NCBI GenBank assembly: GCA_035652995.1
Contig: DASRCS010000026.1
Span: forward strand, 580 to 64,579
Source of the DNA: Pyrinomonadaceae bacterium
GTDB taxonomy: Bacteria > Acidobacteriota > Blastocatellia > Pyrinomonadales > Pyrinomonadaceae
Reading direction: 5' to 3'
DNA: 64,000 nt
Positions within the stretch are counted from its first letter, which is position 1. The number at the start of each line of letters is the position of its first letter. Positions 4,584 to 55,425 of the stretch are shown here, in pieces. A program made the translations under genes and the position numbers. Under the pieces are notes generated by a model, which saw only the letters and a program-made list of their open reading frames with translations, was not told the DNA's origin and searched no databases.

Positions 4584-4922
4584 ATGGCAGATAACATGGA
4601 AGGACAGGGCGGCAGCGGCTCTGGCGGCGGCGGCACTTCGGGCGGCTCGTCGGGTGGTTCTTCTGGCGGCGGCGGAGGCACGGGCGGAGGCGGCAGCACC
4701 GGCGGCGGTGGCGGCAGCTCGTCCGGCGGTTCGAGCGGTGGTTCGAGCGGCGGAAGCTCCGGCGGTGGCGGCGGCACTTCGGGCGGCGGATCGAGCAGCG
4801 GCGGCGGCGGCGGTTCCAGCAGCGGCGGCTCTTCGGGCGGCGGCGGCGGAAGCTCTTCGGGCGGTTCGTCTGGAGGCTCGTCGGGTGGTTCGAGCGGCGG
4901 CAGCTCAGGCGGCGGAAGATAG
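4584..4922 (+). CDS. Gly/Ser-only low-complexity small protein (112 aa), function unknown
   Basis: ATG at 4584 preceded by GGAGGAGAG. The ORF is followed by a stem-loop plus T-run at 4977..5019. The protein after MADNMEGQ is almost entirely G, S and T. Confidence 0.5.
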   Translation: MADNMEGQGGSGSGGGGTSGGSSGGSSGGGGGTGGGGSTGGGGGSSSGGSSGGSSGGSSGGGGGTSGGGSSSGGGGGSSSGGSSGGGGGSSSGGSSGGSSGGSSGGSSGGGR

Positions 4923-6676: not shown

Positions 6677-7054
6677 TTACTTCGACTCCCCTCCGTTCCC
6701 CTTCTTACGTTTCGAGGGGCTTTTATACTCCAACTTCTTCTTCCTCCCCACTGACGCCACCTGATCCGAGTTCGAGCCGAACTGCGCGTCCACCTGCACC
6801 TTCGCGTCGAGCATCGCGTTGTGGAACGCCCACGCCGCCGCGATCTCCGCGTCACGCTTGGCGTCGGCCTCGGCCTGTGCCTGTGTCGCCTCGCGCTGCG
6901 CTTCGTCCAGACGGTCGCGCAGGGCCTTTATGTTCGTCACCGTATATGCCTGATTCGCGGGCGCGTAGTTCTCAATCCCCTGCAAAGCGTCGAACGCGTC
7001 GCGGTCAGACGCAAGTTGCGCGGATGGTAATCTCCTCGTCTGATTCTTCGCCAT
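6677..7054 (-). CDS. hypothetical protein (125 aa, Ala/Gln/Glu-rich helical centre, Lys-rich tail)
   Basis: ORF 6677..7099 trimmed to the ATG at 7054, preceded by AGGAAA. I recognise no family. Confidence 0.5.
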   Translation of the reverse strand: MAKNQTRRLPSAQLASDRDAFDALQGIENYAPANQAYTVTNIKALRDRLDEAQREATQAQAEADAKRDAEIAAAWAFHNAMLDAKVQVDAQFGSNSDQVASVGRKKKLEYKSPSKRKKGNGGESK

Positions 7055-7221
7055 AAGTTTTTCCTTTCGGCATGAGGTTAACGGTTTGACGAGTCTCAAT
7101 GAGGCTCGCCGTAGGCAGTGCGCGCGAGTATGGCGCGGATTCTACGCCCCCCGCGCCGCCGCCGCAAGACTTTTCTACGCCGCCGCCCCCTGCCGCGACG
7201 CGACACGCCCCGCAATCAAGC

Positions 7222-7430
7222 AAACACGCCCTGCTACGACGTAATCACGCCCTGCTACGAAGAAATCGCACGCTGCTACGAAGTAATCACGCGATACTAC
7301 GCCCCAACAATCCGTGATTACGTCGCAACACGCGCTGCAATAAGCCAATCACGCCCTGCTACAAAGCAATTCCGCCCTGCAATAACATATTTCCGCGCTG
7401 CTACGACGCAATTTCGCCCCGCAACGACCC
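7222..7430. repeat. about 10-11 tandem degenerate copies of a 21-bp unit (consensus near AATCACGCCCTGCTACGAMGY)
   Basis: Read directly: aaacacgccctgctacgacgt / aatcacgccctgctacgaaga / aatcgcacgctgctacgaagt / aatcacgcgatactacgcccc / aacaatccgtgattacgtcgc / aacacgcgctgcaataagcc / aatcacgccctgctacaaagc / aattccgccctgcaataacat / atttccgcgctgctacgacgc / aatttcgccccgcaacgaccc. Confidence 0.8.
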
Positions 7431-7512: not shown

Positions 7513-10299
7513 CTACGCTCCCCCGCGCCACTGAGCAAGCGTCGCACGTACTACATTGGCATTTGGCGACTCAATCTGCTCGAAAATCTCAAGCGCCGCT
7601 TCGGCGTGCGCGATAGCGTGTGCGCGGTTGCCAAGTTCGTCGAGCGCCAAACTAGTGTTGAAGAGGTCAATCCCCTCGCCGCGTCGGTCGCCGATTTCGC
7701 GATCAATGATTAATGCCTGCTTATAGAACTCGACGGCGCGGCGCGTCTCGCCCAACGCCGCGTAGGCGCTGCCAAGATTGCCCAGCGCATTCCCCTCGCC
7801 GCGCCGGTCGCCTATCTCTCGCGCGATTGCAAGGTCTTGCTCATAGAACTCGACGGCTCGCCGCGGCTCGCCCAAGCTTCTGTAAGCGACGCCGAGATTG
7901 CCCAGTATTGCCCCCTCGCTGCGGCGGTCGCCGATCTCACGCATGATAGCTAGTGACTGCTCGTGGAATTCGACGGCTCGCCGCGGCTCGCCTAAATTTT
8001 TGTAAGCAACGCCAAGATTGCCCAGCGCATTCCCTTCGCCGCGCCGGTCGCCTATCTCTCGAACGATGACTAATTGTTGCTCGTAGAACTCGACGGCGCG
8101 GCGCGTCTCGCCCAAATCCGCGTAGGCTACGCCAAGATTGCCCAGCGCATTCCCTTCGCCGTGGCGGTCGCCTATCTCTCGTGCGATTGCGAGAAGTTGC
8201 TCGTGGAACTCGACGGCGCGGCGCGTCTCGCCCAACGCCGCGTAGGCTACGCCAAGATTGCCTAAATGTCTTCCCTCAGAGGCACGGTCTTTAAGTTGAC
8301 GCGCAGCCGCCAACGCAGCTTCGAGCCAGACGATGCGCTCGTCGCGTTGATGTTGGCGCAAGTCAAGCACGAACACACCGGCGTCAGGATAAGCATTACA
8401 CAACCGCGCGGCTGTCTCGTCCCCGCCGGATTGCCCGCACGCCCACTTCTGCCCGACCTCTATGTTCTGTCGCTCGGCGTCAAAGAGCGAAAGCCCGCTC
8501 CTGATTGCATCGCCGCCCCGCAAATAGAACTCGTCACACTCTCCGAGCACTCTCAGGTAATGCCAAGCGTGACGCATCAGGCTCTCGCTTCGCTCCGCCT
8601 CGCTCTGGCGAGAGTCCGCGAACAGGCGCGCGAGGTCGTGCAGGCGATAGCGATGCGTCTCTGTGTTGTAGAGTACGAGGCTGCGGCGGACGAGTTCGCT
8701 GAGATGTTTGTGCCCCTCGTCTTCACATATCGCTGCTTCCGCTCCGGCGTCGAACGTCGCGGGGAAGACCGAGAGACGGCGGAAGACGCGCGCGGCGTCC
8801 GTCGAAAGACGCTCGTAGCTCAGGTTGAAGGAGGCTTCGACGCCGATGTCAACGCCCTCAGTCCCGATATTCTCAAGGCGCGTGCGCTCGTCGCCGAGTT
8901 GCGCGGCGTACTCTTCGGGGTCGAGGTCAACCGTCACGTCGAGCAGGCTTCCCGCCGCGCGTATGGCGAGCGGAAGATAGCCGCACAGGTAACAAACACG
9001 ATCCGCAACATTGTTGGGGACACGCGCGCAGATTCCCGTTAAAAGTTCGCGCGCTTCCGTCGCGTTCAGTTGGTCGAGCGTGACGCGCGTCTTCATGCCC
9101 GGCAGCACAATCGCGTTGCGCGAAGTGATGAGCAAGGCCGAACCCGCCGGCGGCAGAAGCGGGCGCACCTGCGCGCTGTCCGAGGCGTTGTCGAGCAGTA
9201 CAAGAGCGCGCTTGCCTTCGAGGACGCTCGTGTAGAGTTGTTTTAACGATTCGATGTCGTCGGGCAGGCGCTGCTCGACGCCGACGAAGGCGCGTATGCA
9301 CGAGGCGAGCGCGTCCGCGGGGTCGCGCGGCGCGTCGCTCGTCCCGCGCATGTCCAGAACGAGTTGCGCGTCGGGGTATGCGTCGCGCAGGCGTTCGGCG
9401 ACGTAGAAGGAAAGCTCTGTCTTGCCGATGCCGCCCATGCCGCTGATGCCCGTGATGGCGGCGCTCCCGCCGCGGCGCAGCGTGGTGAGCAGTTCGGCAA
9501 TCTCCTTCTCGCGCCCGACGAAGTCACCGACGGGTGCGCGGAGTTGATGCAGGGTCGGAATGACGGGGCGGGGCGCTTCCTGGACAATCTTGTTGCCGCG
9601 CACCACGTCTCCCGCCGCATTTTCCACGACGACGTTATCGTCGCCCGTCACGGCGAGGTTGTCGTCTCCGCTGACGGCGACCGAGCGCGCGCCCGTAGCG
9701 ATGTTGAATCCCGCGCGGCGCAAACTCGACAGCAGGTTTTGATCGAGGCCGCTGAAATCTCTGATGCCGTCGAGCAACTGTTGAGCCTCGGCGCGCTGCA
9801 CCTCGCCGCGCGCCGCGCGTTCCAGCAAGGGCGTCAGAAAGTCTTTGAAGATTAGATTGTGAAGGTCGGCGGCAACGTCGGCGGCGAGTTTGCCGGGGCT
9901 TGTGAAGTCGGGGCCGATGATGTGGTTCGTGCGAAGTTCGTGTTTGAGCGTGTCGAGCTTTGCCGTCTGCGCCGCGTCGGTTTCGCGCAGGTCGTCGGGG
10001 ATTGTAGCGTCCGACTTGAAGTAGATGAGGCACGGCAGGCCGCGCTCGCGCGCGCGGCGGTATTCGTCTTCGGTTATGCCTGAGCCGTAGCGGGCGGCGA
10101 AGATGCCGACGTAGATGCTGCTCCGGTCAACGTCGTCGAGCGATGCGCGGCGCGTCGTCTCGTCGCGGCTGCCGAAGTATTCCATGCCGACGAACTGCGT
10201 CTCCTTCATCCGCATGACGGCTGCGCGGACGGCGTCGCGCTCAGGCTCAAGGTCAAGCCAGGTCGAACTGACGAAGACGGGGAGGATGGGCATTGCCAT
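7513..10299 (-). CDS. STAND/NLR-like NTPase: DUF4062-like N-terminal domain, NB-ARC P-loop, TPR repeats
   Basis: Start ATG at 10299 is preceded by GAGGAG. N-terminus PVFVSSTWLDLEPERDAV...IYVGIFAARYGS...LPCLIYF. Walker A GISGMGGIGKTELS and Walker B ALVLLDNA. At least 5 C-terminal 40-aa TPR units (GNLGVAY..LGE.RRAVEF.EQ.L.I.REIGDRR). Confidence 0.85.
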   Translation of the reverse strand: MAMPILPVFVSSTWLDLEPERDAVRAAVMRMKETQFVGMEYFGSRDETTRRASLDDVDRSSIYVGIFAARYGSGITEDEYRRARERGLPCLIYFKSDATIPDDLRETDAAQTAKLDTLKHELRTNHIIGPDFTSPGKLAADVAADLHNLIFKDFLTPLLERAARGEVQRAEAQQLLDGIRDFSGLDQNLLSSLRRAGFNIATGARSVAVSGDDNLAVTGDDNVVVENAAGDVVRGNKIVQEAPRPVIPTLHQLRAPVGDFVGREKEIAELLTTLRRGGSAAITGISGMGGIGKTELSFYVAERLRDAYPDAQLVLDMRGTSDAPRDPADALASCIRAFVGVEQRLPDDIESLKQLYTSVLEGKRALVLLDNASDSAQVRPLLPPAGSALLITSRNAIVLPGMKTRVTLDQLNATEARELLTGICARVPNNVADRVCYLCGYLPLAIRAAGSLLDVTVDLDPEEYAAQLGDERTRLENIGTEGVDIGVEASFNLSYERLSTDAARVFRRLSVFPATFDAGAEAAICEDEGHKHLSELVRRSLVLYNTETHRYRLHDLARLFADSRQSEAERSESLMRHAWHYLRVLGECDEFYLRGGDAIRSGLSLFDAERQNIEVGQKWACGQSGGDETAARLCNAYPDAGVFVLDLRQHQRDERIVWLEAALAAARQLKDRASEGRHLGNLGVAYAALGETRRAVEFHEQLLAIAREIGDRHGEGNALGNLGVAYADLGETRRAVEFYEQQLVIVREIGDRRGEGNALGNLGVAYKNLGEPRRAVEFHEQSLAIMREIGDRRSEGAILGNLGVAYRSLGEPRRAVEFYEQDLAIAREIGDRRGEGNALGNLGSAYAALGETRRAVEFYKQALIIDREIGDRRGEGIDLFNTSLALDELGNRAHAIAHAEAALEIFEQIESPNANVVRATLAQWRGGA
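7678..8280. repeat. five tandem, highly similar 120-bp repeats inside the STAND gene (TPR-encoding units)
   Basis: Blocks such as gccaagattgcccagcgcattcccttcgccg and ctcgtagaactcgacggcgcggcgcgtctcgcccaa recur with a 120-nt period. Confidence 0.8.
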
Positions 10300-10611
10300 T
10301 AGCTCGCTCCTCACGCGAAGGTTTTTGTGAGTCCGTGCGCGCCGGGTCGCGTGTCAAGGTTCGGCGGCGGCTGCGGCGGCGTTGAATGTCGCGGGGCAAC
10401 GATACAGTCGCAAGCGCCTGTTGTAAATGGATTCGACGCGCGCCTGGTGCGTGCGCGAGAAAGATTGCGGGCGGCGCGATGCGCTTGCCGCGCGGGGCGG
10501 TTTCTGATACACAAGCAGCCACGCGGTTAATTTCTCAGACGCAGAAGGGCGCACGTGGTCTCCTGCCGCGCGCGTCCGTCCAGTTCTTCGAGTTGAGGTT
10601 TTAAGGCGAAC

Positions 10612-12570
<1,959 letters not shown>

Positions 12571-12573
<3 letters not shown>

Positions 12574-12662
12574 TGAGTGCGGAATGATGAGTGATGAATG
12601 ATGAATGTGGAGCGGCGGGACTTGTTTTCAATTCATCATTCATCACTCATCACTCATCATTT
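12571..12662. repeat. heptamer-arm hairpin element (unit TGATGAG/TGATGAA)
   Basis: tgatgagtgcggaatgatgagtgatgaatgatgaatg ... attcatcattcatcactcatcactcatcat. Inverted arms built of 7-nt tandem units, directly after the acs stop. Confidence 0.8.
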
Positions 12663-12733
12663 CCCCAAATTCCGGCGGCTTTAGCCGTTTATTTCTAACG
12701 TCCGAAAGTTCTGATTCCAACGGAGGCTCGATC

Positions 12734-13114
12734 ATGTCCGTCCACTTTACCGAACAGCGCTTGGGGCCGCGCTACCTCGTCCACATCAGCGTGCGCGCCG
12801 AGTGGGACGACGAGCGTTCTGGCGAGCACGTCGTCGCCGAGGGCGAGACCGAGAACATCGGGCCGACGGGCGCGCTCGTCCACCTGGAGCGCCTGCCGGA
12901 TGTCGGAAGCCGCGTCCACCTGACCGTGCCCGACCCCGAAGGCAAGCCGCTCGAAACGGTCGCCGAGGTCATCAGGTTGGAGCGCAACCCCGTCCAGCCG
13001 CTCGCCGCGCTGCAACTGACGGGCGAGACCGACGAGTGGCGCGGGCTGGTCTGGGAACCCGCAGGGATACGCGAGCAGCAGCCGGACGAGAACTACGAGG
13101 ACTACATCGAGTAG
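12734..13114 (+). CDS. PilZ domain protein (putative c-di-GMP receptor)
   Basis: ATG at 12734 after GGAGG. RLGPR (RxxxR) then NIGPTGA (D/NxSxxG-like) motifs, 126 aa. Confidence 0.7.
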   Translation: MSVHFTEQRLGPRYLVHISVRAEWDDERSGEHVVAEGETENIGPTGALVHLERLPDVGSRVHLTVPDPEGKPLETVAEVIRLERNPVQPLAALQLTGETDEWRGLVWEPAGIREQQPDENYEDYIE

Positions 13115-15742: not shown

Positions 15743-15827
15743 AAGGCAAAAGAAGGCGAACGGGAAACGGCGCGGCCCTCAACTTTCAACGAGGGCCGCG
15801 CCGTTCCTTGTCTGCACTTTTGCCTTT
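15743..15827. repeat. hairpin element with GGCAAAA-type outer arms and a GC-rich inner stem; probable bidirectional terminator
   Basis: aaggcaaaag...aacggcgcggccctc aactttcaac gagggccgcgccgtt...cttttgcctt, between convergent genes. Confidence 0.7.
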
Positions 15828-15838
15828 TGACTTTGGCC

Positions 15839-16951
15839 TCAGCCCGCGACGCGGGACTGCTCCATCAACTCGATGAAGCGGCGGAAGTGGTGCTCGGCGT
15901 CGTGCGGGCCGGGCGCGGCCTCCGGGTGGTACTGCACCGAGATGATGGGCAGGCTCTTGTGTCGCATCCCCTCGACGCAACTGTCGTTGAGGTTGACGTG
16001 CGTGACTTCGACATCCGCGGGGAGGCTTCCGGCCTCGACCGCGAAGCCGTGGTTGTGCGAAGTGATCTCGACGCGGCCCGTGTGCAAGTCCTTGACGGGC
16101 TGGTTGCCGCCGCGGTGCCCGAAGCGGAGTTTGTAAGTCGCCGCGCCGAACGCGCGACCGAGCAGTTGATGACCGAAGCAGATGCCGAACGTCGGCACGC
16201 CTTCGCCCACGAGCTTGCGAATCTCCTCGACGACCGCCGTCATCGAGGCCGGGTCGCCCGGCCCGTTCGAGAGGTAAATCCCGTCCGGCCCCATCGCGAG
16301 GACTTCCGACGCGGGCGTCGAGGCCGGAACTACGCGGACGCGGCAGCCCGCGCGCGCAAGCTCGTTCAGGGAGTTGCGCTTCACGCCGAAGTCGTAGCAG
16401 ACGACGCGGAACTTCTCTTCGCCGACCGCCGCGACTTCGTAAGGCCGGCTCGTCGTCACCACGCTCGCGAGTTCCCTGTTCTCCATCGGCGCGGACGCGA
16501 GCGTCTTCTCAAGCAGACTCTTCTCGTCGAGGTCAACCGTCGAGAGGCACGCGCGCATCGCGCCCTTGTCCCTGATGTGGCGGACGAGAGCGCGCGTGTC
16601 CACGCGGTCAATCGCGGGGATGCCCCAGCGCTTCAGGTACGCGTCCAGACTCTCCTCCGAGCGCCAGCTCGACGCCACGGCGCTCGCCTCGCGCACGACG
16701 AAGCCCTCGACCCAAGGGCGCGATGATTCTTCGTCGGCGCGGTTCACGCCGTAGTTGCCGATGAGCGGGTAGGTCATGCAGACGATCTGCCCCGCGTATG
16801 AAGGGTCGGTCAGGACTTCCTGATAGCCCGACATCGAAGTGTTGAAAACCATCTCGCCGCAGCGTTCGCCTTCCGCGCCCCACGCGCGACCGCGGAACGC
16901 TCGACCGTCTTCGAGCACGAGCAGCGCCGGCCTGTTCTCTCTGTTTGTCAT
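15839..16951 (-). CDS. carA: carbamoyl-phosphate synthase small (glutaminase) subunit
   Basis: [21 protein letters not shown]..., [32 protein letters not shown] catalytic Cys, HNHGF. Confidence 0.95.
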
Positions 16952-19315: not shown

Positions 19316-19405
19316 CAAGTGAGCGGTGAGCCGCAAGCGGTGAGCAGTAGTCAGCGACTGCGGGCGTCGGGCGTTCAACTCCTTGACTGCTTACCGCTCA
19401 CTGCC
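19316..19405. repeat. heptamer-arm hairpin element (unit GTGAGCG/GTGAGCA)
   Basis: caagtgagcggtgagccgcaagcggtgagcagtagtcag ... cttgactgcttaccgctcactgcc. Confidence 0.7.
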
Positions 19406-19515
19406 CAAGCCTTGACAGCCGTCGCGGGGCGTCTCTATTATCGCGACGCGGAAAGCGTTGGCATCATTCGACAAATCTCTCTCCCCGAAAAGTCGAAGGC
19501 GGAGGCCGAAACCAG

Positions 19516-19869
19516 GTGATTAAACTCGACATCGTGAACCGCGTCGCCGAGCGCACGGGCGTGCCGAAGATGAAGGCCGAGCAGGCCGTTGACGCACTCT
19601 TCCATTCGATGAAGGAGGCGCTGGCGCGCGGCGAGCGCATCGAGCTTCGCGGCTTCGGCGTCTTCGTCGTCAAGCCCCGCAAGCGCGGCGTCGGGCGCAA
19701 CCCGCGCACCGGCGAGGAGGTCGCCATCCCCTCCGGCAAGACCATCCGCTTCAAGCCCGGCAAGGAGCTTCAGGCGCACGGCTTCCACGTCGAAGGCGAC
19801 CACGAGGACGACCACGACGGGCACGAACGGGACGCGCCGGGCGCGCCTGCTCACGAAACGAATTTCTAA
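19516..19869 (+). CDS. HU/IHF family DNA-binding protein with His/Asp-rich C-terminal tail
   Basis: GTG start. RIELRGFGVF...RNPRTGEEV...I.FKPGKEL canonical IHF/HU core, then HGFHVEGDHEDDHDGHERD tail. Confidence 0.9.
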   Translation: MIKLDIVNRVAERTGVPKMKAEQAVDALFHSMKEALARGERIELRGFGVFVVKPRKRGVGRNPRTGEEVAIPSGKTIRFKPGKELQAHGFHVEGDHEDDHDGHERDAPGAPAHETNF

Positions 19870-19874
19870 CAATG

Positions 19875-19964
19875 CAGAGGTCAGAGGCCGGGGGTCGGAG
19901 GTCAGTGAAAAGCCGCCTGCTTTCTACTGACCTCCGACCCCCGGCCTCTGACCTCTTTTTTTTA
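19875..19964 (+). repeat. heptamer-arm hairpin element (unit GAGGTCA/GAGGTCG) followed by a T8 run; acts as a terminator-like structure
   Basis: cagaggtcagaggccgggggtcggaggtcagt ... actgacctccgacccccggcctctgacctct tttttttt. Confidence 0.85.
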
Positions 19965-21116: not shown

Positions 21117-21497
21117 CTACGGCCTGTTGGAGTTGCCGGGCCTGCCCGTGCCGGTGTTGGTGCCCATGCCGCGGTTCGAGTTGGTGCCGGTGCCGCGGTT
21201 CATGTTCCCGCCGGTCGTGCCCATGTTGCCGTTCATATTGGTGCCGGTCGTCGTGCCGGTATTCATGTTCGTGCCGGTGCCGGTCGTGCCCATGTTGCTG
21301 TTCATGTTCGTGCCGGTCGTCGTCGTGCCGGCGTTCATGTTCGTCCCCGTCGTGGTCGTCGAACTGTTCAGGTTCGAGCCGGTCGTCGAGGTGTTCACGT
21401 TGGCGTTGCCGGCGTTCGCGTTATCTCCGCCCCCGTTGCACGCGCCGACGAGGCCGGCGGCGGCGAGGAGAGACAAGAGAGCCAAAGTTCTTCGCAT
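21117..21497 (-). CDS. lipoprotein with Gly/Thr/Asn-rich (GTNMN) low-complexity repeats
   Basis: ATG at 21497 after AGGAGG. Signal plus lipobox MRRTLALLSLLAAAGLVGAC. The mature part is almost only G, T, N, M and S. Confidence 0.75.
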   Translation of the reverse strand: MRRTLALLSLLAAAGLVGACNGGGDNANAGNANVNTSTTGSNLNSSTTTTGTNMNAGTTTTGTNMNSNMGTTGTGTNMNTGTTTGTNMNGNMGTTGGNMNRGTGTNSNRGMGTNTGTGRPGNSNRP

Positions 21498-23123: not shown

Positions 23124-23143
23124 AAGTAAGTTCCTTCAGAATT

Positions 23144-23250
23144 TAGAGGTCGGAGGTCAGTTGAAGCCGACTCAGCAGTTATCCGAGATGAATGTGGGCC
23201 GAACGGCTCACGCGACTACTGACCTCTGACCTCCGACCTCTAACCTCTGC
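23144..23250. repeat. heptamer-arm hairpin element (GAGGTCG/GAGGTCA), same sub-family as 19875..19964
   Basis: tagaggtcggaggtcagt ... actgacctctgacctccgacctctaacctctgc. The right arm overlaps the last codons and stop of the GGDEF gene. Confidence 0.75.
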
Positions 23251-25162: not shown

Positions 25163-25246
25163 AAGCTATCAGCACTCAGTCGTCAGCTTTTCAGCCGAAG
25201 CGGAGGGGGTTGATTTGTTTTAGCTGAAAGCTGATTGCCGATGGCT
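25163..25246. repeat. imperfect hairpin element with CAGC-rich arms
   Basis: aagctatcagcactcagtcgtcagcttttcagc ... gctgaaagctgattgccgatggctt. The right arm overlaps the yacG start. Confidence 0.5.
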
Positions 25247-25468
25247 TTAAGGAAGTGCCCGTCCTGCCACAGACCCGTCAATTGGGAGAACAACCCTCAC
25301 CGCCCGTTCTGCTCCGAGCGCTGCAAGCTGATTGACTTCGGCGCGTGGGCCAACGAGGAGTACGGCGTGCCCGCCGAGGACTCCGCGCCGTCGCTCGAAG
25401 AGTTGGAGCGGGGCACGGCGACTCCCGAAGGCGACTCCGACCAAACAAACCCGGCGCCGAGACGCTGA
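25241..25468 (+). CDS. yacG: DNA gyrase inhibitor YacG (zinc-ribbon)
   Basis: CPSCHRPV...[15 protein letters not shown] four-Cys zinc-finger signature. An alternative TTG start is at 25235. Confidence 0.8.
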
Positions 25469-26186: not shown

Positions 26187-26297
26187 GGCAAGTAAGCAGT
26201 GAGCGGTGAGCAGTCAAATCGCTCGCTGCGACTGACTGCTCACCGCTCGCTGCTCACTGCTCACTGCTTACCGCTCACCGCTCACTGCTCACTTGCT
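26187..26297. repeat. heptamer-arm hairpin element (GTGAGCG/GTGAGCA), same sub-family as 19316..19405
   Basis: ggcaagtaagcagtgagcggtgagcagtcaaa ... gactgactgctcaccgctcgctgctcactgctcactgcttaccgctcaccgctcactgctcacttgc. Confidence 0.8.
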
Positions 26298-28090: not shown

Positions 28091-30682
28091 ATGAAACCGA
28101 AGACTCCCTCGTCCCTCGTTAAGTTATTCGTTTCAGCCTCGTTGGCAGCATCCATTTTGGTGGGCGGAGCCGCCACAGTCCACGTCGGGGCGCAAGCCGA
28201 GCGCAAGACCACGCAGCACACGCAGCAGTACCCTGTGCTCTCGCGCTACGCGAGCGACCTGACGCGGCTCGCGCGGCTCGGCCAACTCGACGCCGCGGGC
28301 CACGAGTCCGACGCCCGCAAGGCCGTCGAGATTCTCTCGCGCGTCTCGAAGAACAACCCCGTCCTGCTCGCCGAGTCCGGCGCGGAAGCTTCGGCTGTCG
28401 CGCGCGGCGTCGCCGTCGAGCTGGCGTCGGCCCAAGCGCCCGCCTCTTTGCGCGGCGCGCGCGTCTTCGCGCTCGACCGCGACGCGCTGACGGCGGGCAC
28501 GAAGACCGCGGACGAGTTCGTCGCGCGCCTCAAGTCCGTGCTCGAAGACGCGGCCTCTTCGCGCGGTCGCGTCGTCCTCTTCGTCGCGGACTTCCACCAG
28601 TTCGCCGGCACCTACACGTCGCGCGAGGCGTCCGACCTCGTGCGCTCGGCCCTTGAGCGCGGCGACCTGCGAGTGATCGGCGCGACCAACCCGGAAATCT
28701 ACGGCGAGCACGTCGCGAAGGACGAGTCGCTCGCGAAACTCTTGCAGCCCGTCCAACTCTCCGGCGGCGGCGACGCGCGTACCGACAGGGACGAGTCTGC
28801 CGGCGTCACCCTGTCCGACATGAGGCTCTCGCCCGACCTGCGCGAGATGGTCGGCGGCGCGAAGCCTGGCGAGCGCGTCGGCGTCATCCTTCAGGCCGAC
28901 GACCTGAGCAACTCCGAGCTTTCGTCGCTGCTGCGCCGCTACAACGCCGACGTGAAGTCGCGCATGGATCAGCTCGGCGCGATGCGCGTCGAACTGCCCG
29001 CCGAGGCTTTGAAGGAGATCGCGAAGAGCGGCGCGGCCAGCTACCTCTCGCCCGACCGCCAGATGCTTCCGCTCGGCCACGTCACTTCGACTACGGGGAC
29101 GGACGCCGTCCGCAACGGCGGACTCATCGCCGGACTCACGGGCACGACCGTTGACGGCACCGGCGTCGGCATCGCCATCCTCGACTCCGGCATTGACGCG
29201 GCGCACGCGGCCTTCTCCGGCGGTCGCATCAAGTTCAAGAAGGATTTCACGTCCGAGGCGACGGACGGCAGCAAAGACCCCTACGGCCACGGCGCGCACG
29301 TCGCGTCTTCGGCGGCGGGCGTCAGCACCGTCTCCGGCGGCACCTACGAGGGCATCGCGCGCAACGCCAACATCATCAGCCTGCGCGTGCTGAACTCGCA
29401 GGGCGTAGGCAAGACCTCCGACCTGCTGGCCGCGCTCAACTGGATTCTCAGCCCCGTTGACCCGACCAAGCCGCTCAGTTCGTCGAATCCGACGAACGCG
29501 GTGAAGTTCAACATTCGCGTCGTCAACATGAGCCTCGGCGCTCCCGCCGTTGACTCTTACAAGAACGACGCCGTCTGCCTCGCCGCGCGCAAGCTCGTTG
29601 ACGCCGGAATCGTCGTCGTCGCGGCGGCGGGCAACAACGGCAAGGACGCCAACGGCAATAAGCTCTACGGCCAGATTCACTCGCCCGGCGACGAGCCTTC
29701 GGTCGTCACGGTCGGCGCGGCCAACACCTTCGGCACCGACGCCCGCTCGGACGACGGCATCGCGACCTTCAGCTCGCGCGGCCCGACTCGCGGCAGTTGG
29801 ACTGACGGTGCAGGCGTCAAGCACTACGACAACCTGATGAAGCCCGACCTCGTCGCCCCCGGCAACAAGCTCATCTTCGCCGAGGCCGACAACGGTGCCA
29901 GCGGCTGGAACTACCTCGTGACGCAACACCCGGAACTCGACACCGGCATCACGACCAGCGACAACAAGAAGCTGATGTACCTGTCGGGAACTTCGATGGC
30001 GACGCCGATTGTCGCGGGCGCGGCGGCGCTGATGCTCCAAGTCAACCCGAAGCTGACGCCGAACATGGTCAAGATGATCCTGATGTACACGGCGCAGCCG
30101 CTCGCGGGCTTCAACGAACTCGAACAGGGTTCGGGCGAGTTGAACGTCGTCGCCGCCGTGCAAATGGCGAAGCTCGTCCGCACCGACCTCGGCTCGAACC
30201 CGGCGCAGGGCACGCCGCTGCTGACGACCTCGACGCTCCCGACGCCGCAGACGACCATCGCGGGCTACACGTTCCCCTGGGCGCAGGGCGTCATCCTGAA
30301 GCAGAACTACGCGACGGGCACGAACCTCATCGCGCAGTATCAGACCGTGTACGGACTCGGCATGGTTCTCGGCGACGGCTACGTCTCGACGGACGGCACC
30401 GTTTCGGGGAGCGGCATCATGATGGGCGACGGCATCATGATGGGCGACCAGATAACGACGAGCGCCGGCATGGTCATCGGCGACGGCGCGCCGTTCATGC
30501 CCTGCGGCATCCTGTTGGGCGACGGGATACTCATGGGCGACGGCATGGTCGTCGGCGACGGGATACTCATGGGAGACGGGATGGTCGTCGGCGACGGCAT
30601 CCTGATGGGCGACGCCGCGCTTCAGGCGATGTCGGCGGCGGTCGGGGGCGACCCCGGCCCGGCGATGCAGCCCGCGCCCTAG
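28091..30682 (+). CDS. secreted subtilisin-like serine protease (S8) with N-terminal degenerate Clp-ATPase-like module and C-terminal Met-rich hexapeptide repeats
   Basis: Signal peptide MKPKTPSSLVKLFVSASLAASILVGGAATVHVGAQA. S8 triad AILDSGID / HGAHVAS / GTSMATP. N-terminal region colinear with ClpB NBD1 (see findings). Confidence 0.9.
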   Translation: MKPKTPSSLVKLFVSASLAASILVGGAATVHVGAQAERKTTQHTQQYPVLSRYASDLTRLARLGQLDAAGHESDARKAVEILSRVSKNNPVLLAESGAEASAVARGVAVELASAQAPASLRGARVFALDRDALTAGTKTADEFVARLKSVLEDAASSRGRVVLFVADFHQFAGTYTSREASDLVRSALERGDLRVIGATNPEIYGEHVAKDESLAKLLQPVQLSGGGDARTDRDESAGVTLSDMRLSPDLREMVGGAKPGERVGVILQADDLSNSELSSLLRRYNADVKSRMDQLGAMRVELPAEALKEIAKSGAASYLSPDRQMLPLGHVTSTTGTDAVRNGGLIAGLTGTTVDGTGVGIAILDSGIDAAHAAFSGGRIKFKKDFTSEATDGSKDPYGHGAHVASSAAGVSTVSGGTYEGIARNANIISLRVLNSQGVGKTSDLLAALNWILSPVDPTKPLSSSNPTNAVKFNIRVVNMSLGAPAVDSYKNDAVCLAARKLVDAGIVVVAAAGNNGKDANGNKLYGQIHSPGDEPSVVTVGAANTFGTDARSDDGIATFSSRGPTRGSWTDGAGVKHYDNLMKPDLVAPGNKLIFAEADNGASGWNYLVTQHPELDTGITTSDNKKLMYLSGTSMATPIVAGAAALMLQVNPKLTPNMVKMILMYTAQPLAGFNELEQGSGELNVVAAVQMAKLVRTDLGSNPAQGTPLLTTSTLPTPQTTIAGYTFPWAQGVILKQNYATGTNLIAQYQTVYGLGMVLGDGYVSTDGTVSGSGIMMGDGIMMGDQITTSAGMVIGDGAPFMPCGILLGDGILMGDGMVVGDGILMGDGMVVGDGILMGDAALQAMSAAVGGDPGPAMQPAP

Positions 30683-34096: not shown

Positions 34097-34837
34097 TTAC
34101 GCGAACGCGCCGCGGAAGAATTTAATCATCTCGCCGAACGCCTCGTCGGTCGCTACGGGGTCGTAGCGCGGCCCTTCGTCGCGCATGAAGGCGTGCTCCG
34201 CCGCGTAGAGCTTCACGTCGAAATTAACGCCCGCCGCGCGCAGAGCTTCGACGATCTTCTCGCGCCCTTCTGCCGGCACGTGCGGGTCAGCCGAGCCGAA
34301 GACGAGCAGCAGCGCGCCGCGAATCTCGCCCGCGCGCGCCAGCGTGCCCGCGTCCTCGTCGCTGCCGAGTTTCCCGTTGTGAACTCCGGTCGGGTAGAAG
34401 CAGACGGTCGCGCACACGTCCGGCTGCAAGGCCGCGCGAAACGCCAGATGCCCGCCGATGCAAAAGCCCGCCGCGCCGAGTTGCCCTCCTGCGACGCGCG
34501 GGTGCGCGGCGAGATAGTCGAGCGTCGCGCGGCAGTCTTCGTCGAACTCCGCGACCGAAGTCCGCGCAGCGTCTTCGAGTCCGCGCGTGCGCCCCGCGTC
34601 GTCGAAAGGGATGGCCGTGCCCGGCGCTTCGATGCGGTGGTAAATCTCCGGCGCGGCGACGACGAAGCCGTAGCCCGCCAGCCGCGCGCACGCGCGCACC
34701 GTCGGCCCCGTCAACTGGAAGATGTCCGAATAGACGAGCACGCCCGGATGCACTCCGTCGCCTTTCGGCGCGAACACCTGCACGCGCATCGCGCTCCCGC
34801 CGACATCAATGTCAACGTGTTCAGTCGTGATAACCAT
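34097..34837 (-). CDS. dienelactone hydrolase family protein
   Basis: Alpha/beta hydrolase with GFCIGG nucleophile elbow. Start MVITTEH; the upstream part of the ORF lies in a repeat element. Confidence 0.8.
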   Translation of the reverse strand: MVITTEHVDIDVGGSAMRVQVFAPKGDGVHPGVLVYSDIFQLTGPTVRACARLAGYGFVVAAPEIYHRIEAPGTAIPFDDAGRTRGLEDAARTSVAEFDEDCRATLDYLAAHPRVAGGQLGAAGFCIGGHLAFRAALQPDVCATVCFYPTGVHNGKLGSDEDAGTLARAGEIRGALLLVFGSADPHVPAEGREKIVEALRAAGVNFDVKLYAAEHAFMRDEGPRYDPVATDEAFGEMIKFFRGAFA

Positions 34838-34852
34838 CAGCTCGCCCCGCGA

Positions 34853-34934
34853 GAAAGGATGAAGGCGGAAGGATGAGGGATGAAGTGAAGACAACGCTTC
34901 TTTCATCCTTCACCTTGCAGCCTTCATCCTTCTC
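34853..34934. repeat. heptamer-arm hairpin element (unit GGATGAA/GGATGAG)
   Basis: gaaaggatgaaggcggaaggatgagggatgaagtgaag ... tttcatccttcaccttgcagccttcatccttctc. Confidence 0.8.
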
Positions 34935-37773: not shown

Positions 37774-37872
37774 CCTTTGTGTCCCTCTGTGAAATCCTTT
37801 GTGGCCTCTGTGGTTGAGTTCGGATTCTTTAATCACAGAGGCCACAGAGGTATTCACAAAGGGCACAGAGGG
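37774..37872. repeat. heptamer-arm hairpin element (unit CCTCTGTG/CTTTGTG)
   Basis: cctttgtgtccctctgtgaaatcctttgtggcctctgtgg ... cacagaggccacagaggtattcacaaagggcacagaggg. Confidence 0.8.
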
Positions 37873-42771: not shown

Positions 42772-44480
42772 GGCCGCTCGACTGGATAGTTCTGTTCGCC
42801 GCGCTCGCCGGCATCGTCGCCTACGGACTCTGGAAGGGGCGGCGCACACGCGACCTCGAAGACTTCCTCGTCGCGAGCCGACGCCAGCGCTGGCACCACG
42901 TCGCGCTCTCGATCATGGCGACGCAGGCGAGCGCGATCACCTTCCTCTCGACTCCGGGCCAGGCGTTCACGGACGGGATGCGCTTCGTGCAGGTCTATCT
43001 CGGCCTGCCCGTGGCGATGGTCATCATCTCCGTGACCGCCGTTCCGATTTACCACCGGCTGAAGGTTTACACCGCATACGAATACCTCGAAGGCCGATTC
43101 GACCTGAAGACGCGGACGCTCGCCGCGCTCCTCTTTCTCGCGCTGCGCGGGCTTTCGACGGGCGTCTCGATCTACGCGCCTTCGGTCATCCTCTCGGTCA
43201 TCATGGGCTGGGACATAAGATTGGTCATCTTCATCATCGGCGCGTCCGTGATGCTCTACGCCTCGACGGGCGGCGCGCGTTCTGTTGACAACGCGAACTT
43301 CCTGCAATTCCTCATCATCATGGGCGGGATGATCGTCGCGTTCGTCACGCTCGTCCGGCTTCTGCCCGCGGACGTTTCGTTCCTCGAAGCGACGCACGTC
43401 GCCGGAAAGCTCGGACGCCTCAACGCAATTGACTTCTCGTTCGACATCAAAAATCAATACAACTTCTGGTCGGGACTCGTCGGCGGCTGTTTCCTCTCGC
43501 TCTCGTACTTCGGCACCGACCAGTCGCAGGTGCAGCGCTACCTGACGGGACAGTCGGTCGCGCAGAGCCGGCTCGGCCTCCTCTTCAACGGCATGGTCAA
43601 AGTGCCGATGCAGTTCTTCATCCTCTTCATCGGAGCGATGGTCTTCGCCTTCTACCAGTTCACGCAGCCGCCCGTCTTCTTCAACCCGGTCGAGGCCGAC
43701 CGCGCGCGCGCGGGCCAGCACGGCGCGCAGTTCCGCGGGGTCGAGTCGGAGTACGCGGCGGCGTTTGCGGCGAAGCGCGACGCGGCGATGAGCTACGTCG
43801 GCGCTCTGCGCTCGGGCAACGAGGCGGCGACCGAGTCGGCGGCGCAAAACCTGAGGGCGGCGCAGCAGCACGCGGACACTGTGCGCGAACGCGCCGTCGG
43901 AATCATCAAGGAGTTCGACGCGAAGCCCTCGGACGCGAACTACGTCTTTCTGAATTTCGTCACGACCTACCTTCCGGCGGGCGTCGTCGGGCTGGTGCTC
44001 GCGGCGGTCTTCCTCGCCTCGATGTCCTCGACCGCTTCGGAGTGGAGCGCGCTGGCCTCGGCCACAATCGTTGACATCCAGCGGCGTCTCATCAAGCCGA
44101 ACGCGGGCGAGCGCTACTACTTCATCTCGTCGAAGGTCGCAACCGCATTGTGGGGCGTGTTCGCCGTTTCGTTCGCGCAGTACGCCGGACACCTCGGCTC
44201 GCTCATCGAGGCGGTCAACCGTCTCGGCTCGCTCTTCTACGGGACTATCTTAGGCATCTTCCTGCTCGCCTTCTATTTCAAGCGCGTCGGCGGCACGGCG
44301 GCGTTCGCCGGCGCGGTGGCGGGCGAGTTGGTCGTGCTCTACTGCTTCTTCGTCACGAACATCGCCTACCTCTGGTTCAACGTCATCGGCGCGCTCGTCG
44401 TCATCGCCGCCGCGCTCGTCGTGAGCGCGGCCACACCAAAGCAGAATCGTTTAGCCGACGGAGTCGGCGGCGGAATGTAG
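42768..44480 (+). CDS. sodium:solute symporter (SSS) family transporter
   Basis: 570 aa with about 13 TM helices. Start MRPLDWIVLF. SSS-like motifs. Confidence 0.85.
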   Translation: MRPLDWIVLFAALAGIVAYGLWKGRRTRDLEDFLVASRRQRWHHVALSIMATQASAITFLSTPGQAFTDGMRFVQVYLGLPVAMVIISVTAVPIYHRLKVYTAYEYLEGRFDLKTRTLAALLFLALRGLSTGVSIYAPSVILSVIMGWDIRLVIFIIGASVMLYASTGGARSVDNANFLQFLIIMGGMIVAFVTLVRLLPADVSFLEATHVAGKLGRLNAIDFSFDIKNQYNFWSGLVGGCFLSLSYFGTDQSQVQRYLTGQSVAQSRLGLLFNGMVKVPMQFFILFIGAMVFAFYQFTQPPVFFNPVEADRARAGQHGAQFRGVESEYAAAFAAKRDAAMSYVGALRSGNEAATESAAQNLRAAQQHADTVRERAVGIIKEFDAKPSDANYVFLNFVTTYLPAGVVGLVLAAVFLASMSSTASEWSALASATIVDIQRRLIKPNAGERYYFISSKVATALWGVFAVSFAQYAGHLGSLIEAVNRLGSLFYGTILGIFLLAFYFKRVGGTAAFAGAVAGELVVLYCFFVTNIAYLWFNVIGALVVIAAALVVSAATPKQNRLADGVGGGM

Positions 44481-44517
44481 CCCGCGGCGCGAGGGAATGC
44501 GACGCGCAAAAATAATC

Positions 44518-44609
44518 GAAGCCCCGGAGGGGCGAAAGAGCTTCGAGGCGTTGAACATCAACGTACCTTGAAATTCTGTCGCCCCTCCGGGGCTTCAATC
44601 TTTTTATTG
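44518..44609. repeat. 18-bp inverted repeat pair (GAAGCCCCGGAGGGGCGA), each arm itself a mini-palindrome, followed by a T-run; REP-like or terminator
   Basis: gaagccccggaggggcga ... tcgcccctccggggcttc aatcttttta. A further GCCCCTAAAGGGGC mini-hairpin lies near 44654. Confidence 0.8.
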
Positions 44610-44709
44610 TCGCTCGTTCCCACGGCTCGCGCCGCGGGCTACATTCCGCCGCCCCTAAAGGGGCTTTCACTCTGCCTCCGTCACATCGTTACGGAGAAAG
44701 CGTCGCTTC

Positions 44710-47927: not shown

Positions 47928-48896
47928 ATGCCTGAAGATAATGAAGCCCCGCAGTTTTGGAATTACAACGTCACTTCGGAATACACTCCCGACGCCGATG
48001 CTGTTATCGCTCCCGGCGATTGCCTTGTGACTCTGGGTAGGCTGCCGAGCGGATTAGCCAAACTCGTCATCACGTCGCCGCCTTACAACCTCGGCAAGGC
48101 TTACGAGAAGGTGACCGAACTCGACAAGTATCTCGACGCGCTCCGCCCCGTAGTCGAAGAGATTGTGCGCGTTCTTTCGCCGGAAGGCTCTCTGTGCTGG
48201 CAGGTCGGGAATTACGTTGAAAGCGGCGAGGTCTTTCCGCTTGATATTTTCTATTACAGGCTGTTTAAGGAGCGAGGTTTCAAGCTCCGCAATCGCATCA
48301 TCTGGCATTTCGAGCACGGGCTACACGCCTCCAAGCGATTCTCCGGGCGCTACGAAACGCTCCTCTGGTTCACGAAGAGCGATGACTATACTTTCAACCT
48401 CGACCCCGTGCGCGTGCCCTCGAAGTACCCCGGTAAAACTCACTTCAAAGGCGAGAAGAAGGGGCTGCCCTCCGGCAACCCGCTCGGCAAGAACCCTTCA
48501 GACATCTGGCGCATCGTCGCCCACGATTTCGAGACCGCGCTCTGGAACATTCCGAACGTCAAGGCCAACCACCCTGAGAAGACCGTCCACCCGTGTCAGT
48601 TTCCCATCGAACTGGTAGAGCGTTGCGTCCTCGCGTTGACCGACGAGGGCGATTGGGTTCTCGATCCTTTTTCGGGCGTCGGCTCCGCGCTCCTCGCCGC
48701 GCTCAAGAACAGGCGCAGGGCCTTCGGCTGTGAGAAGGACGACGAGTACGTTCGCATCGCGCACCAACGGATCGCCGATCTTGCTTCCGGCAAGTTGCGC
48801 TACCGGCGACTCGGCAAGCCCGTACACCAACCTACCGGGCGCGAGAAGGTCGCCCAAGTCCCCCTCGAATGGCTGACGAAGGAGGCGAACCAATGA
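47928..48896 (+). CDS. type II DNA methyltransferase, beta-class N4/N6 family, probably N4-cytosine
   Basis: Motif IV VITSPPYNLG before motif I DPFSGVGSALLAA (beta-class order). Visibly lower GC than the flanks. Confidence 0.85.
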   Translation: MPEDNEAPQFWNYNVTSEYTPDADAVIAPGDCLVTLGRLPSGLAKLVITSPPYNLGKAYEKVTELDKYLDALRPVVEEIVRVLSPEGSLCWQVGNYVESGEVFPLDIFYYRLFKERGFKLRNRIIWHFEHGLHASKRFSGRYETLLWFTKSDDYTFNLDPVRVPSKYPGKTHFKGEKKGLPSGNPLGKNPSDIWRIVAHDFETALWNIPNVKANHPEKTVHPCQFPIELVERCVLALTDEGDWVLDPFSGVGSALLAALKNRRRAFGCEKDDEYVRIAHQRIADLASGKLRYRRLGKPVHQPTGREKVAQVPLEWLTKEANQ

Positions 48897-49462
48897 GGCT
48901 CGCCGCGCAGTTTTCGTTCAAAGGCGGTCTTGAATCAATCAAGGCGCGCAACCCACAACTGCTCGACGAAGTGCTGGACGCGATCCGCTCGATAGACGCT
49001 TCGCAAGCGCGGACGAAGGTCAGTAAGGAAAAGACAATGACGGGGCAGACGCTCTACAGTCCCGTCGCGCTCAACGCGGCTTTCAAGCGGCAACTGTTCA
49101 CGAAAGGCTGGAAGAATCTGAAGGTTAATTGTGACTACCCGACCGAGTATTACCTCGAAGACTACAAACACCGGGCAGAGATAAAAGGCGCGTTCCGCGA
49201 CATGGACTTTGTCAAGGAGAGGCTCGGCGTCGAAGTCCAGTTCGGCAAGTATTCGTTCATGGTCTATAACGTCTGCGCGAAGATGACCATCTTCCACAAC
49301 CTCGGACACATTGACTGCGGGATAGAGATCGTGCCCGTCAAAGCCCTCGCCTTGCAAATGTCGTCGGGCGTCTCTTACTTCGAGCAGTTCGTCTGGGACT
49401 TGCGGCAGCGGGGCGTCGCCGACATTGACATTCCTGTTCTGATCCTCGGAATTGACGCTTGA
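48893..49462 (+). CDS. BglII-family type II restriction endonuclease
   Basis: ATG overlaps the methylase stop (ATGA). DMDFVKERLGVEVQFGKYSF matches the BglII D-x8-E-x-Q catalytic core (BglII: DIDFGKRDTLVEVQFSNYPF, recalled from memory). Confidence 0.7.
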   Translation: MRLAAQFSFKGGLESIKARNPQLLDEVLDAIRSIDASQARTKVSKEKTMTGQTLYSPVALNAAFKRQLFTKGWKNLKVNCDYPTEYYLEDYKHRAEIKGAFRDMDFVKERLGVEVQFGKYSFMVYNVCAKMTIFHNLGHIDCGIEIVPVKALALQMSSGVSYFEQFVWDLRQRGVADIDIPVLILGIDA

Positions 49463-51025: not shown

Positions 51026-51077
51026 TCTACTACGCGCGCGGCTCGGTTCGGGCCGTGTGGCCGCGCGGCGCGCGTCT

Positions 51078-51380
51078 TCAGGTGATGACGTTCGGGCCGA
51101 ACCAGCCGCGGCTGCTGTAGTCGGTGAGCGTGAGCAGGAGCAGGATGAGCAGCCAGAAGAACATCGAGGCGACGATGACCCAGATGAGCCGCGAGCTGTA
51201 GCGCACGTGCATGAAGAACAGCAGCACGAGCATCATCTTCGTCACCGCGATGGTGATCGCCACCACGTCGTTGAACTTCCCCAACGGCACGTTGGCGACG
51301 AAGACCGTCAGCGCCGTGAAAAAGATCAGCGCGCCGAAGACCATGTAATAAGTTTTGCGCGGGACGATGTGTACGGACAT
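51078..51380 (-). CDS. cytochrome c oxidase subunit IV (small caa3-type subunit)
   Basis: 100 aa with 3 TM helices. Start MSVHIVPRKTYY. Positioned after subunit III. Confidence 0.75.
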   Translation of the reverse strand: MSVHIVPRKTYYMVFGALIFFTALTVFVANVPLGKFNDVVAITIAVTKMMLVLLFFMHVRYSSRLIWVIVASMFFWLLILLLLTLTDYSSRGWFGPNVIT

Positions 51381-51392
51381 AAACCCAAGCCT

Positions 51393-51448
51393 CGTGAACC
51401 GTGAACGGTAAGCCGTGACGAGATGAAAGCCGTTCTCCCTCGTCACGG
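51393..51448. repeat. short heptamer-type hairpin (GTGAACC/GTGACGA) between oxidase subunit genes
   Basis: gtgaaccgtgaacggtaagccgtgacgag ... ctcgtcacgg. Confidence 0.55.
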
Positions 51449-52174: not shown

Positions 52175-52188
52175 ACCTCCTCAAGAGC

Positions 52189-52282: not shown

Positions 52283-54011
<1,729 letters not shown>

Positions 54012-55421: not shown

Positions 55422-55425
55422 ACAA

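Follow-up and report, generated by a model that had tools for sequence, protein, structure and literature searches.

Palindromic heptanucleotide repeats between and within the genes of a Pyrinomonadaceae bacterium and its relatives

What maintains a family of long hairpins with repetitive arms in a bacterial genome, and what, if anything, do these hairpins do for the genes around them? The question arises from a 64-kb stretch of DNA of a Pyrinomonadaceae bacterium (Acidobacteriota, Blastocatellia), hereafter the window, and in particular from the spacer between a gene for an HU-like protein (19516-19869, + strand) and a gene for an M50 site-2 protease. This spacer holds a hairpin, our focal element, whose near-perfect 37-bp stem is made of the seven-nucleotide units AGAGGTC, AGAGGCC, GGGGGTC and GGAGGTC, and which a preliminary description had placed among 14 dispersed inverted repeats with arms of tandem heptanucleotides. 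We think it probable, though well short of certain, that these hairpins are palindromic simple-sequence repeats (SSRs) comparable to the short tandemly repeated repetitive (STRR) sequences of cyanobacteria, which, as far as sequence comparison can tell, would be maintained at the DNA level by slippage, templating of one arm by the other and copying between loci, and would assume RNA roles that depend on the site.

Periodicity was measured as the number of 28-nt regions in which 75% or more of the positions match at a given lag, with 20 dinucleotide shuffles as control. The window contains 15 such regions at lag 7, compared with 0.75 in the shuffles; lags 4, 5, 6, 8, 10, 11 and 13 are at chance level, and multiples of three, which reflect coding, are the only other lags above chance. 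Tandem Repeats Finder (TRF) placed period-7 arrays at nearly all coordinates listed, covering 12 to 13 of the elements, usually one per arm. Sixteen ungapped inverted repeats have stems of 16 bp or more, where shuffled sequence gives 0.8 (an approximately 20-fold excess of long hairpins), and seven have stems of at least 25 bp, where shuffling yields none. All 14 elements are predicted to fold into long stem-loops (-21 to -80 kcal/mol, z -2.9 to -15.9), and about a quarter of the intergenic spacers of the window hold such a hairpin. The scan thus disposes of the possibility, raised in the preliminary description, that the elements are coincidences without excess over shuffled sequence or that their arms lack 7-nt periodicity. 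The description of their arms as heptameric holds clearly for 12 of the 14; the element at 25164 is degenerate, and the one at 37774 is a strong hairpin without 7-nt periodicity (lag-7 identity 0.22, TRF period 21) and probably represents a different repeat type. No Rfam family matches any of the hairpin elements, the sole Rfam hit in the window being one described below.

The window and all of its relatives are metagenome assemblies, in which mis-assembly can create palindromes, but we regard assembly artefacts or chance as a practically negligible explanation. The 7-nt periodicity and the long inverted repeats are both far above the shuffles, and three independent assemblies give the same elements base for base: a soil-metagenome contig from the Joint Genome Institute (JGI) is identical (100%) to window positions 50042-64000, and two further assemblies that reproduce the elements are 99.7-99.9% identical to the window. 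The elements also lie inside the contigs of dozens of independent metagenome-assembled genomes, chromosome-level Pyrinomonadaceae assemblies (OY969475.1, OY969111.1, OY969701.1, OZ252004.1) included, and reading frames are kept through two of them.

Relatives were found by scanning species-representative genomes with an ActF-like protein. The 80 loci obtained carry, with few exceptions, the label Pyrinomonadaceae, Blastocatellia or Acidobacteriota, and L004 and L005 are the closest (89% and 72% protein identity). Two sets are syntenic with the window, one covering the cluster of alternative complex III (ACIII) and oxidase genes (L004, L005, L084-L094) and the other the region from the acetyl-CoA synthetase gene acs to the pyruvate kinase gene around the focal element (L164-L167). 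A census of the window and 1.44 Mb of related loci yielded about 490 tandem arrays of at least 2.8 copies, of which 334 have period 7 and about 30 each have periods 6, 8 and 9. In 1.9 Mb of related loci, too, period 7 predominates among tandem repeats, with many of its arrays in inverted pairs. The period-7 arrays comprise 89 inverted pairs by a strict criterion (partner array within 150 nt), 71 arrays with a shorter inverted partner and 249 plain direct arrays; since the strict criterion recovers only three of the window's own hairpins, the counts of inverted pairs are lower bounds. The 249 arrays without an inverted partner indicate that the 7-nt process is independent of the hairpin. Period-7 arrays are densest in loci labelled Pyrinomonadaceae (2.75 per 10 kb, compared with 2.5 in the window), and none of the few loci labelled Thermoanaerobaculia, Terriglobia or Gemmataceae showed inverted pairs. 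The hairpins are a trait of the Blastocatellia and especially of the Pyrinomonadaceae.

Comparison of orthologous spacers, made on TRF consensus units, shows hairpins that stay in place as their units change. Between cox1 and cox3, all 12 genomes considered (the window and the 11 relatives examined) are occupied, with the units GTGACGA, GTGATAA, GTGACAG, GTGATGA, GTGATAG and GTGACAA, mostly one-step variants of GTGAYRA. The actD-actE spacer is occupied in every relative examined in detail (GGCAAAA, GGCAGAA, GGCAGCA), L005 having a different hairpin together with the old 3' array, and the junction next to the GGDEF gene at 23143 is occupied in five of five relatives (GAGGTCG, GAGGCTA, ATGATGA, GAACGAC). 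The spacer of the focal element is occupied in five of five genomes, with AGAGGTC in the window and GGCGAGC, GTGACGA, AGATGYT and GYGRCGA elsewhere; AGATGTC and GCGGCGA are also among the units recorded there. Over the cox1-cox3, actD-actE and HU-M50 sites, the majority of units are one-step neighbours. Between cox3 and cox4, where the cox3 DNA is 81-91% identical, nine relatives are occupied, four are empty and one retains a remnant. Within each genome the left-arm unit is the reverse complement of the right-arm unit, whereas the units vary between genomes; as both arms carry the same variant, a change evidently spreads over all units of both arms. Occupancy in the broader set of related loci differs strongly between junctions: 46 of 94 genomes at actD-actE, 42 of 124 at cox1-cox3, 42 of 86 at hyp-sco1 and 31 of 85 at actC-actD, compared with two of 95 at cox2-cox1 and none of 95 at actE-actF. 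Persistence at some junctions despite complete turnover of the sequence, together with total absence at others, suggests that position matters, either because a stem-loop is useful at those spacers or because only those spacers tolerate one. Judged by this synteny, the hairpins are old, being positionally conserved across species and evolving in place as well as by copying.

The evidence for copying comes from units shared within genomes. In the window, 12 of the 14 elements can be matched in six pairs with the same unit, and at least seven unit families are present. The elements at 34851 and 50407, 15.5 kb apart, have a 36-nt arm in common that is 94% identical and contains five unit variants in identical order, a match that convergence cannot explain. 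Exact unit sharing amounts to 9.4% within loci and 1.9% between loci, an approximately five-fold difference, and L092 carries one unit pair at two different spacers where other genomes have other units. Both the 36-nt arm and the excess of sharing within genomes bear out the earlier proposal that elements were copied rather than having originated independently. Of the shared strings cited for that proposal, AGGATGAAGGCGGAAGGATGA is indeed present at 34856 and 50411, whereas GAGGTCGGAGGTCAGT is exact at 23146 only, the first bases differing at 19893 so that 14-15 nt are common to the two sites.

The arms of single elements point to a DNA-level process as well. In the focal element (19876-19906 and 19926-19956) and in the one at 50407 (50412-50444 and 50457-50489), the two arms mirror each other's order of four or five different unit variants with 100% complementarity over 31-33 nt, and in 28 of 109 pairs the arms differ in length by at least one unit. 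Because period 7 dominates hairpin-less arrays too, arms can be unequal, variants are mirrored and units at one site form one-step series, we place the underlying process at the level of DNA. In the scheme we favour, replication slippage on 7-nt units would create and resize the arrays; the arms would then be kept complementary by mutual templating, through intrastrand or quasi-palindrome correction or through gene conversion, such that a point change could spread through all units of both arms; and whole arms would now and then be copied between loci of one genome. Arrays would grow until they meet coding constraints, which would account for their typical start at the stop codon of the incoming gene. 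Where transcribed, the hairpins should form very stable stem-loops, whose effect would depend on the site.

Copying within genomes could also betray non-autonomous mobile elements of the kind known as REPINs (paired repetitive extragenic palindromic, REP, sequences) or miniature inverted-repeat transposable elements (MITEs), which would be moved by a transposase encoded elsewhere, for example a tyrosine transposase of the RAYT (REP-associated tyrosine transposase)/IS200 type; on this view, shared occupancy of orthologous sites would go back to old insertions or to the same spots having been targeted more than once. The five-fold enrichment of unit sharing within genomes, the six same-unit pairs in the window with their 36-nt arm, and the presence/absence polymorphism at cox3-cox4 among relatives with about 90% identical cox3 DNA are all compatible with this, as is the insertion of a copy in frame into a coding sequence whose homologues lack the insert, which REP elements and Rickettsia palindromic elements (RPEs) likewise do (PMC3733652). 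Yet there is no conserved terminal sequence (GTAG/CTAC at none of the 14 ends, CGTC by chance at three of 14), and comparison of occupied with empty cox3-cox4 spacers reveals no target-site duplication. The 53 distinct units found among the 89 inverted pairs of the relatives argue against a common recognition sequence, species differ in the unit of a given site by single steps, which is what in-place change predicts, and many heptamer arrays are not palindromic at all. The preliminary description saw no RAYT/IS200-like transposase in the window, and the window proteins checked, by their Pfam calls, include no RAYT-like or other transposase, a statement that covers 64 kb of the genome. Taken together, we consider mobility by transposition rather unlikely.

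As a class, the hairpins show no sense-strand signature. Their spacers are co-directional, convergent and divergent in 75, 16 and 9% of cases, matching a background of 71, 15 and 14.5%; T-tails have no class preference for the sense strand (3.5 vs 4.0 T per 10 nt, at least five T in 18 vs 25); the minimum free energy favours the sense fold in 31 and the antisense fold in 32 cases; and mismatches are not asymmetric (73 of the G.U type vs 79 of the A.C type). These data bear directly on the simplest functional explanation, that the hairpins are the lineage's intrinsic Rho-independent terminators, often bidirectional. Several copies do lie between convergent genes (15743, 37774), most start directly after a stop codon, and the focal hairpin (19876-19956) is followed by a T8 tract, correctly noted before and located at 19956-19963, which abuts the ATG of the M50 gene at 19964; T4-T6 tracts follow its orthologues in the four relatives. 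However, stem plus U-tract is a feature of the focal element and not of the hairpins as a class, the orientation of the spacers is that of the background, five copies sit in spacers of 60-100 nt in the ACIII-oxidase cluster, two are translated and one lies between divergent promoters. A family of terminators is therefore quite improbable as a general explanation, and the earlier view that termination cannot be the only role of the hairpins stands, on the grounds of the T-tails, the orientations, the copy between -35 boxes and the two copies in reading frames.

Individual copies may nevertheless act on RNA. Given the T-tract conserved in all five genomes, the focal copy most likely serves to terminate or attenuate transcription after the HU gene. 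For the copies in the ACIII-oxidase operon, analogy with REP (PMC3733652) and STRR (PMC2670836) hairpins makes protection of 3' ends, segmental mRNA stability and translational coupling or uncoupling the most likely functions. At 19318-19402, upstream of the HU gene, a hairpin is placed between the divergent -35 boxes of the signal peptidase and HU genes, with a promoter-like TTGACA-N18-TATTAT at 19412-19441 directly downstream of it; the flanking TTGTCAA and TTGACAG boxes are kept in five of five relatives, the hairpin in four of five.

The arms have a strict polarity. Of 109 pairs, 95 have a purine-rich 5' arm, and G outnumbers C in this arm in 93 of 102; 5' arms are composed of A 0.31, C 0.12, G 0.36 and T 0.20. 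As each element is palindromic, this polarity is the same on both strands. Arrays start at a median of 4 nt past the stop codon of the incoming gene, 88 of 109 between -21 and +15 nt, and the first units of the window arrays that follow acs and cox1 contain the stop codons of these genes. Two explanations of the polarity were rejected. Stop codons in all three frames, had they been selected, should be enriched in the 5' arms, yet they occur in 35 of 109, compared with about 48 in composition-matched shuffled units. Telomerase-like addition of G-rich repeats at a break would fit the polarity and is ruled out by the mirrored order of variants and by the site-specific units. It is possible that a hydrophilic, stop-rich first arm does less harm when an array invades the end of a gene, an idea unsupported beyond composition.

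Polarity also enters a further proposal, according to which the 7-nt period is read unit by unit by a single-strand-binding protein, for example one with a cold-shock domain, the hairpins being conditional structures that tune termination or translation and whose state would depend on temperature or chaperone level. In PMC4679880, CspB is reported to bind as one protein per heptamer with a preference for pyrimidine-rich sequence, and the 3' arms are pyrimidine-rich; moreover, tandem units permit pairing in several registers. We nevertheless hold this to be very improbable, for the units are very diverse and period 7 also dominates in hairpin-less arrays, which have no strand bias relative to genes (82 vs 83).

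Two copies have been absorbed into coding sequence. The open reading frame (ORF) of an acyltransferase (49502-51025, - strand) reads in frame through the element at 50407-50497, and through its counterparts in L004 and L005. The insert is placed between the PlsC motifs CPEG and IVPAGL and adds 29 residues relative to homologues without it: the motifs are 66 residues apart in the window, 88 in L004, 78 in L005 and 50 in L092, compared with 37-40 in L085, L089 and L093, which have no insert. Sequence and length of the insert thus vary by species (13 to 51 extra residues), with the frame kept. In the second case, the ATG of ActE, a cytochrome c lipoprotein, overlaps the actD stop codon, and the frame has no stop codon from there through the hairpin up to the lipobox cysteine. 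All of the 93 related loci keep the ActE frame open across the hairpin region, against 22 and 60 for the other two frames, and so do all 53 loci with a heptamer signature. Its purine-rich 5' arm encodes the charged stretch KAKVKRQKAK and its pyrimidine-rich 3' arm the hydrophobic core and lipobox of a predicted signal peptide, FCLLPFAFLLSGC.

With a purine-rich 5' arm and a pyrimidine-rich 3' arm on either strand, translation would, from whichever side it enters, meet hydrophilic, stop-rich codons first and hydrophobic ones thereafter. It is tempting, if doubtful in our judgement, to conclude that the polarity was selected and that the hairpins are a lineage-wide, self-correcting palindromic DNA module reused for several jobs, among them encoding the ActE signal peptide and gating ActE through mRNA structure. 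Were this true, a whole bacterial class would use a hairpin-encoded signal peptide for ActE, with a charged n-region followed by core and lipobox; an mRNA structure of -50 kcal/mol would gate ActE translation and couple ActE to actD; and the hairpins would document how a selfish palindrome can turn into a functional segment of a protein and a regulatory element.

For gene annotation the hairpins are a practical nuisance, as gene-calling programs prolong ORFs through them or place ORFs wrongly; cases in the window are yacG, ActE, the acyltransferase and a dienelactone-hydrolase-like gene. Longest-ORF calls run through hairpin arms at 34097-34906, 12605-13114 and 58359-59204, where the pyrimidine-rich arms, being free of stop codons, give rise to artificial N-terminal extensions such as MKEALSSLHPSSFRLHPFS… and MWSGGTCFQFIIHHSSLII…, and false extensions of this kind are probably numerous in the public gene annotations of these genomes. 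A yacG-like zinc-finger ORF (25241-25466, …CPSCHRPV…) was missed by simple ORF ranking.

Several points weigh against our interpretation of the hairpins as STRR-like repeats with site-dependent RNA roles. We infer all of these RNA roles, and the copy between divergent -35 boxes lies where no transcript is expected. With no sense-strand signature, retention of the hairpins could be mutational or selfish rather than functional. Neither slippage nor templating explains the polarity of the arms, and the scheme leaves the route of copying between loci unaccounted for. Finally, the genomes of the relatives entered the analysis, and with it the census, as pieces of about 20 kb.

How do these elements compare with known repeats? 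The classical STRR units are CCCCAGT, TTGGTCA and CAACAGT, none of which occurs in tandem here on either strand. With the STRR sequences of filamentous cyanobacteria (hupS-hupL, nif/hox) the elements have in common tandem 7-bp units, many intergenic sites and hairpins between cistrons, but the phylum is Acidobacteriota and more than 50 units are in use. The comparison with STRR made in the preliminary description is apt; however, the inverted arms, there taken as a departure, are none, since cyanobacterial 7-bp arrays already form hairpins between cistrons, for which roles in stability, translational coupling or termination have been suggested (PMC2670836). We did not find reported for STRR the G-rich polarity of 5' arms (93:9), the abutment on stop codons, the turnover of units at orthologous sites or translated copies. 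Heptanucleotides are, according to the work of Mrazek and co-workers as relayed in PMC4679880, the commonest long SSRs in prokaryotes, with polymerase slippage as their proposed origin. The arrays described here resemble them in that period 7 is by far the most frequent period, most arrays are intergenic and slippage is the presumed source. Those SSRs are direct arrays, as are the TAACTGA repeats of Beggiatoaceae, for which a survey reports a single inverted case; in contrast, a large fraction of the arrays described here come as inverted pairs, whose hairpins have energies of -40 to -80 kcal/mol.

RPEs measure about 100-150 bp and have a conserved sequence rather than tandem heptamers; the element at 50407-50497 resembles them in being inserted in frame between conserved motifs. 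REP sequences, bacterial interspersed mosaic elements (BIMEs) and REPINs are likewise dispersed extragenic palindromes that lie downstream of genes or in operons, form genome-specific families, are inherited vertically and are occasionally intragenic (PMC3733652). By the definition given there, the hairpins differ from REPs and REPINs in having no GTAG tag, and CGTC/GACG at few ends without consistent position; moreover, their arms are tandem repeats of many unrelated unit families, not one unique palindrome of 20-40 bp, whereas REPs and REPINs consist of one or a few conserved palindromes at high copy number. From MITEs they differ in that the whole element is an inverted repeat, with no related insertion sequence in the window. 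The literature searched yielded no report of such elements in Acidobacteria. The kind of element is thus already known; new are the host lineage, the orthologous turnover in which both arms change together, the polarity, the association with stop codons and the two translated copies.

Blastocatellia are abundant in soil, yet hardly any molecular genetics has been done with them. In these organisms the hairpins are likely to shape operon expression, and short-read assemblies are likely to break at them. The hairpins also provide a second, independent lineage for the long-unexplained heptanucleotide phenomenon of STRR, with dozens of orthologous sites that allow slippage, arm correction, inter-locus copying and selection to be told apart, and with strict arm polarity and translated copies as testable handles on the persistence of 7-nt palindromic repeats.

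Table 1. Repeat-armed hairpins of the window with their units, genomic setting and supporting data (TRF, period-7 array detected; fold, predicted stem-loop; energies in kcal/mol)
Positions	Type and units	Setting	Support
12568-12662	heptamer arms, ATGATGA/GTGATGA; unit family shared with 56999	begins at stop codon of acetyl-CoA synthetase gene (10612-12573, +), upstream of PilZ gene	TRF period 7 in both arms; -48.6, z -6.9
15743-15839	GGCAAAA-type outer arms around perfect 15-bp GC-rich core	between convergent response-regulator (+) and carA (-) genes; a strong hairpin lies here in relatives too	-55, z -6.4
19318-19402	heptamer arms, GTGAGCG	between signal peptidase I (-) and HU-like (+) genes	TRF, fold
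19876-19963	focal hairpin plus T8	HU-like/M50 spacer	-79.5, z -15.9
23143-23243	heptamer arms, GAGGTCG/GAGGTCA, 65-nt structured loop	between two co-directional (-) genes, response-regulator-GGDEF and 337-aa hypothetical	TRF, fold
25164-25246	degenerate member, GCTGAAA/GCTGATT, reversed polarity	between crp and yacG; yacG start codon (25241) within 3' arm	z -3.5
26187-26297	heptamer arms, GTGAGCG/GTGAGCA, 3.4 vs 8.4 units; unit shared with 19318	between thioredoxin-like and pyruvate kinase (+) genes	-60.6, z -8.8
34851-34934	heptamer arms, GGATGAA/GGCGGAA	between two co-directional (-) dienelactone-hydrolase-like genes	TRF; z -9.6
37774-37871	non-heptameric strong hairpin, CCTYTGTG at irregular ~10-nt spacing, pyrimidine-rich 5' arm	between convergent SnoaL-like genes	z -10.9
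50407-50497	heptamer arms, GGATGAA/GGCGGAA/GGGTGAA	in acyltransferase coding sequence	-78.5, z -14.3
51393-51448	GTGAACC direct units plus small GTGACGA hairpin	62-nt cox3-cox4 spacer	TRF; z -2.9
52187-52283	heptamer arms, GTGACGA/GTGACAA vs GTGAACC	cox1-cox3 spacer; array holds final five codons and stop of cox1 (VNREP-stop)	TRF, fold
56999-57085	heptamer arms, GTGATGA/GTGATAA/GCGATGA	fills 96-nt spacer between ActF-like gene and 209-aa gene (-)	z -6.8
59075-59190	heptamer arms, GGCAAAA	inside 5' end of ActE frame 58359-59204 (-)	

Some of the hairpins in Table 1 have additional features. Those at 23143-23243 and 59075-59190 have long loops (45-70 nt) with GC-rich inner stems of the type CTCCGC…GCGGGCG, as do the hairpins in the cox3-cox4 spacer of L084, L086, L088, L089 and L092. 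Inverted copies of one array flank cox3 at a distance of about 850 nt, as GTGAACC at 51393-51418 and GGTTCAC at 52263-52282.

The window contains other repeats. At 7204-7424, a 21-nt unit (ACGCCCTGCTACGAAGTAATC-like; 21 = 3 x 7) is directly repeated about ten times, between a 140-aa ORF without Pfam match (6677-7099, - strand) and a DUF4062/NB-ARC/TPR gene (7513-10314, - strand). Further tandem repeats have periods that are multiples of three and are unrelated to the heptamer hairpins: a 120-nt TPR-coding repeat (7724-8262), 33/69-nt repeats (21156-21388), 18/36-nt repeats that encode GDGILM-type motifs at the C-terminus of a subtilase-like protein (30412-30650), and GGC-rich repeats of 12-24 nt (4629-4901). 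A nested palindrome lies between convergent genes at 44470-44665, its outer arms of about 24 nt enclosing an 18-bp GC-rich hairpin with a T-run; the Rfam hit mentioned above, Acido-Lenti-1 (44619-44665, + strand, 39.8 bits), overlaps its outer right arm. Finally, an N6/N4 DNA methylase and a BglII-type restriction endonuclease are encoded at 47928-49462; both are absent between proC and the acyltransferase gene in L004 and L005, pointing to a recent insertion of a restriction-modification system.

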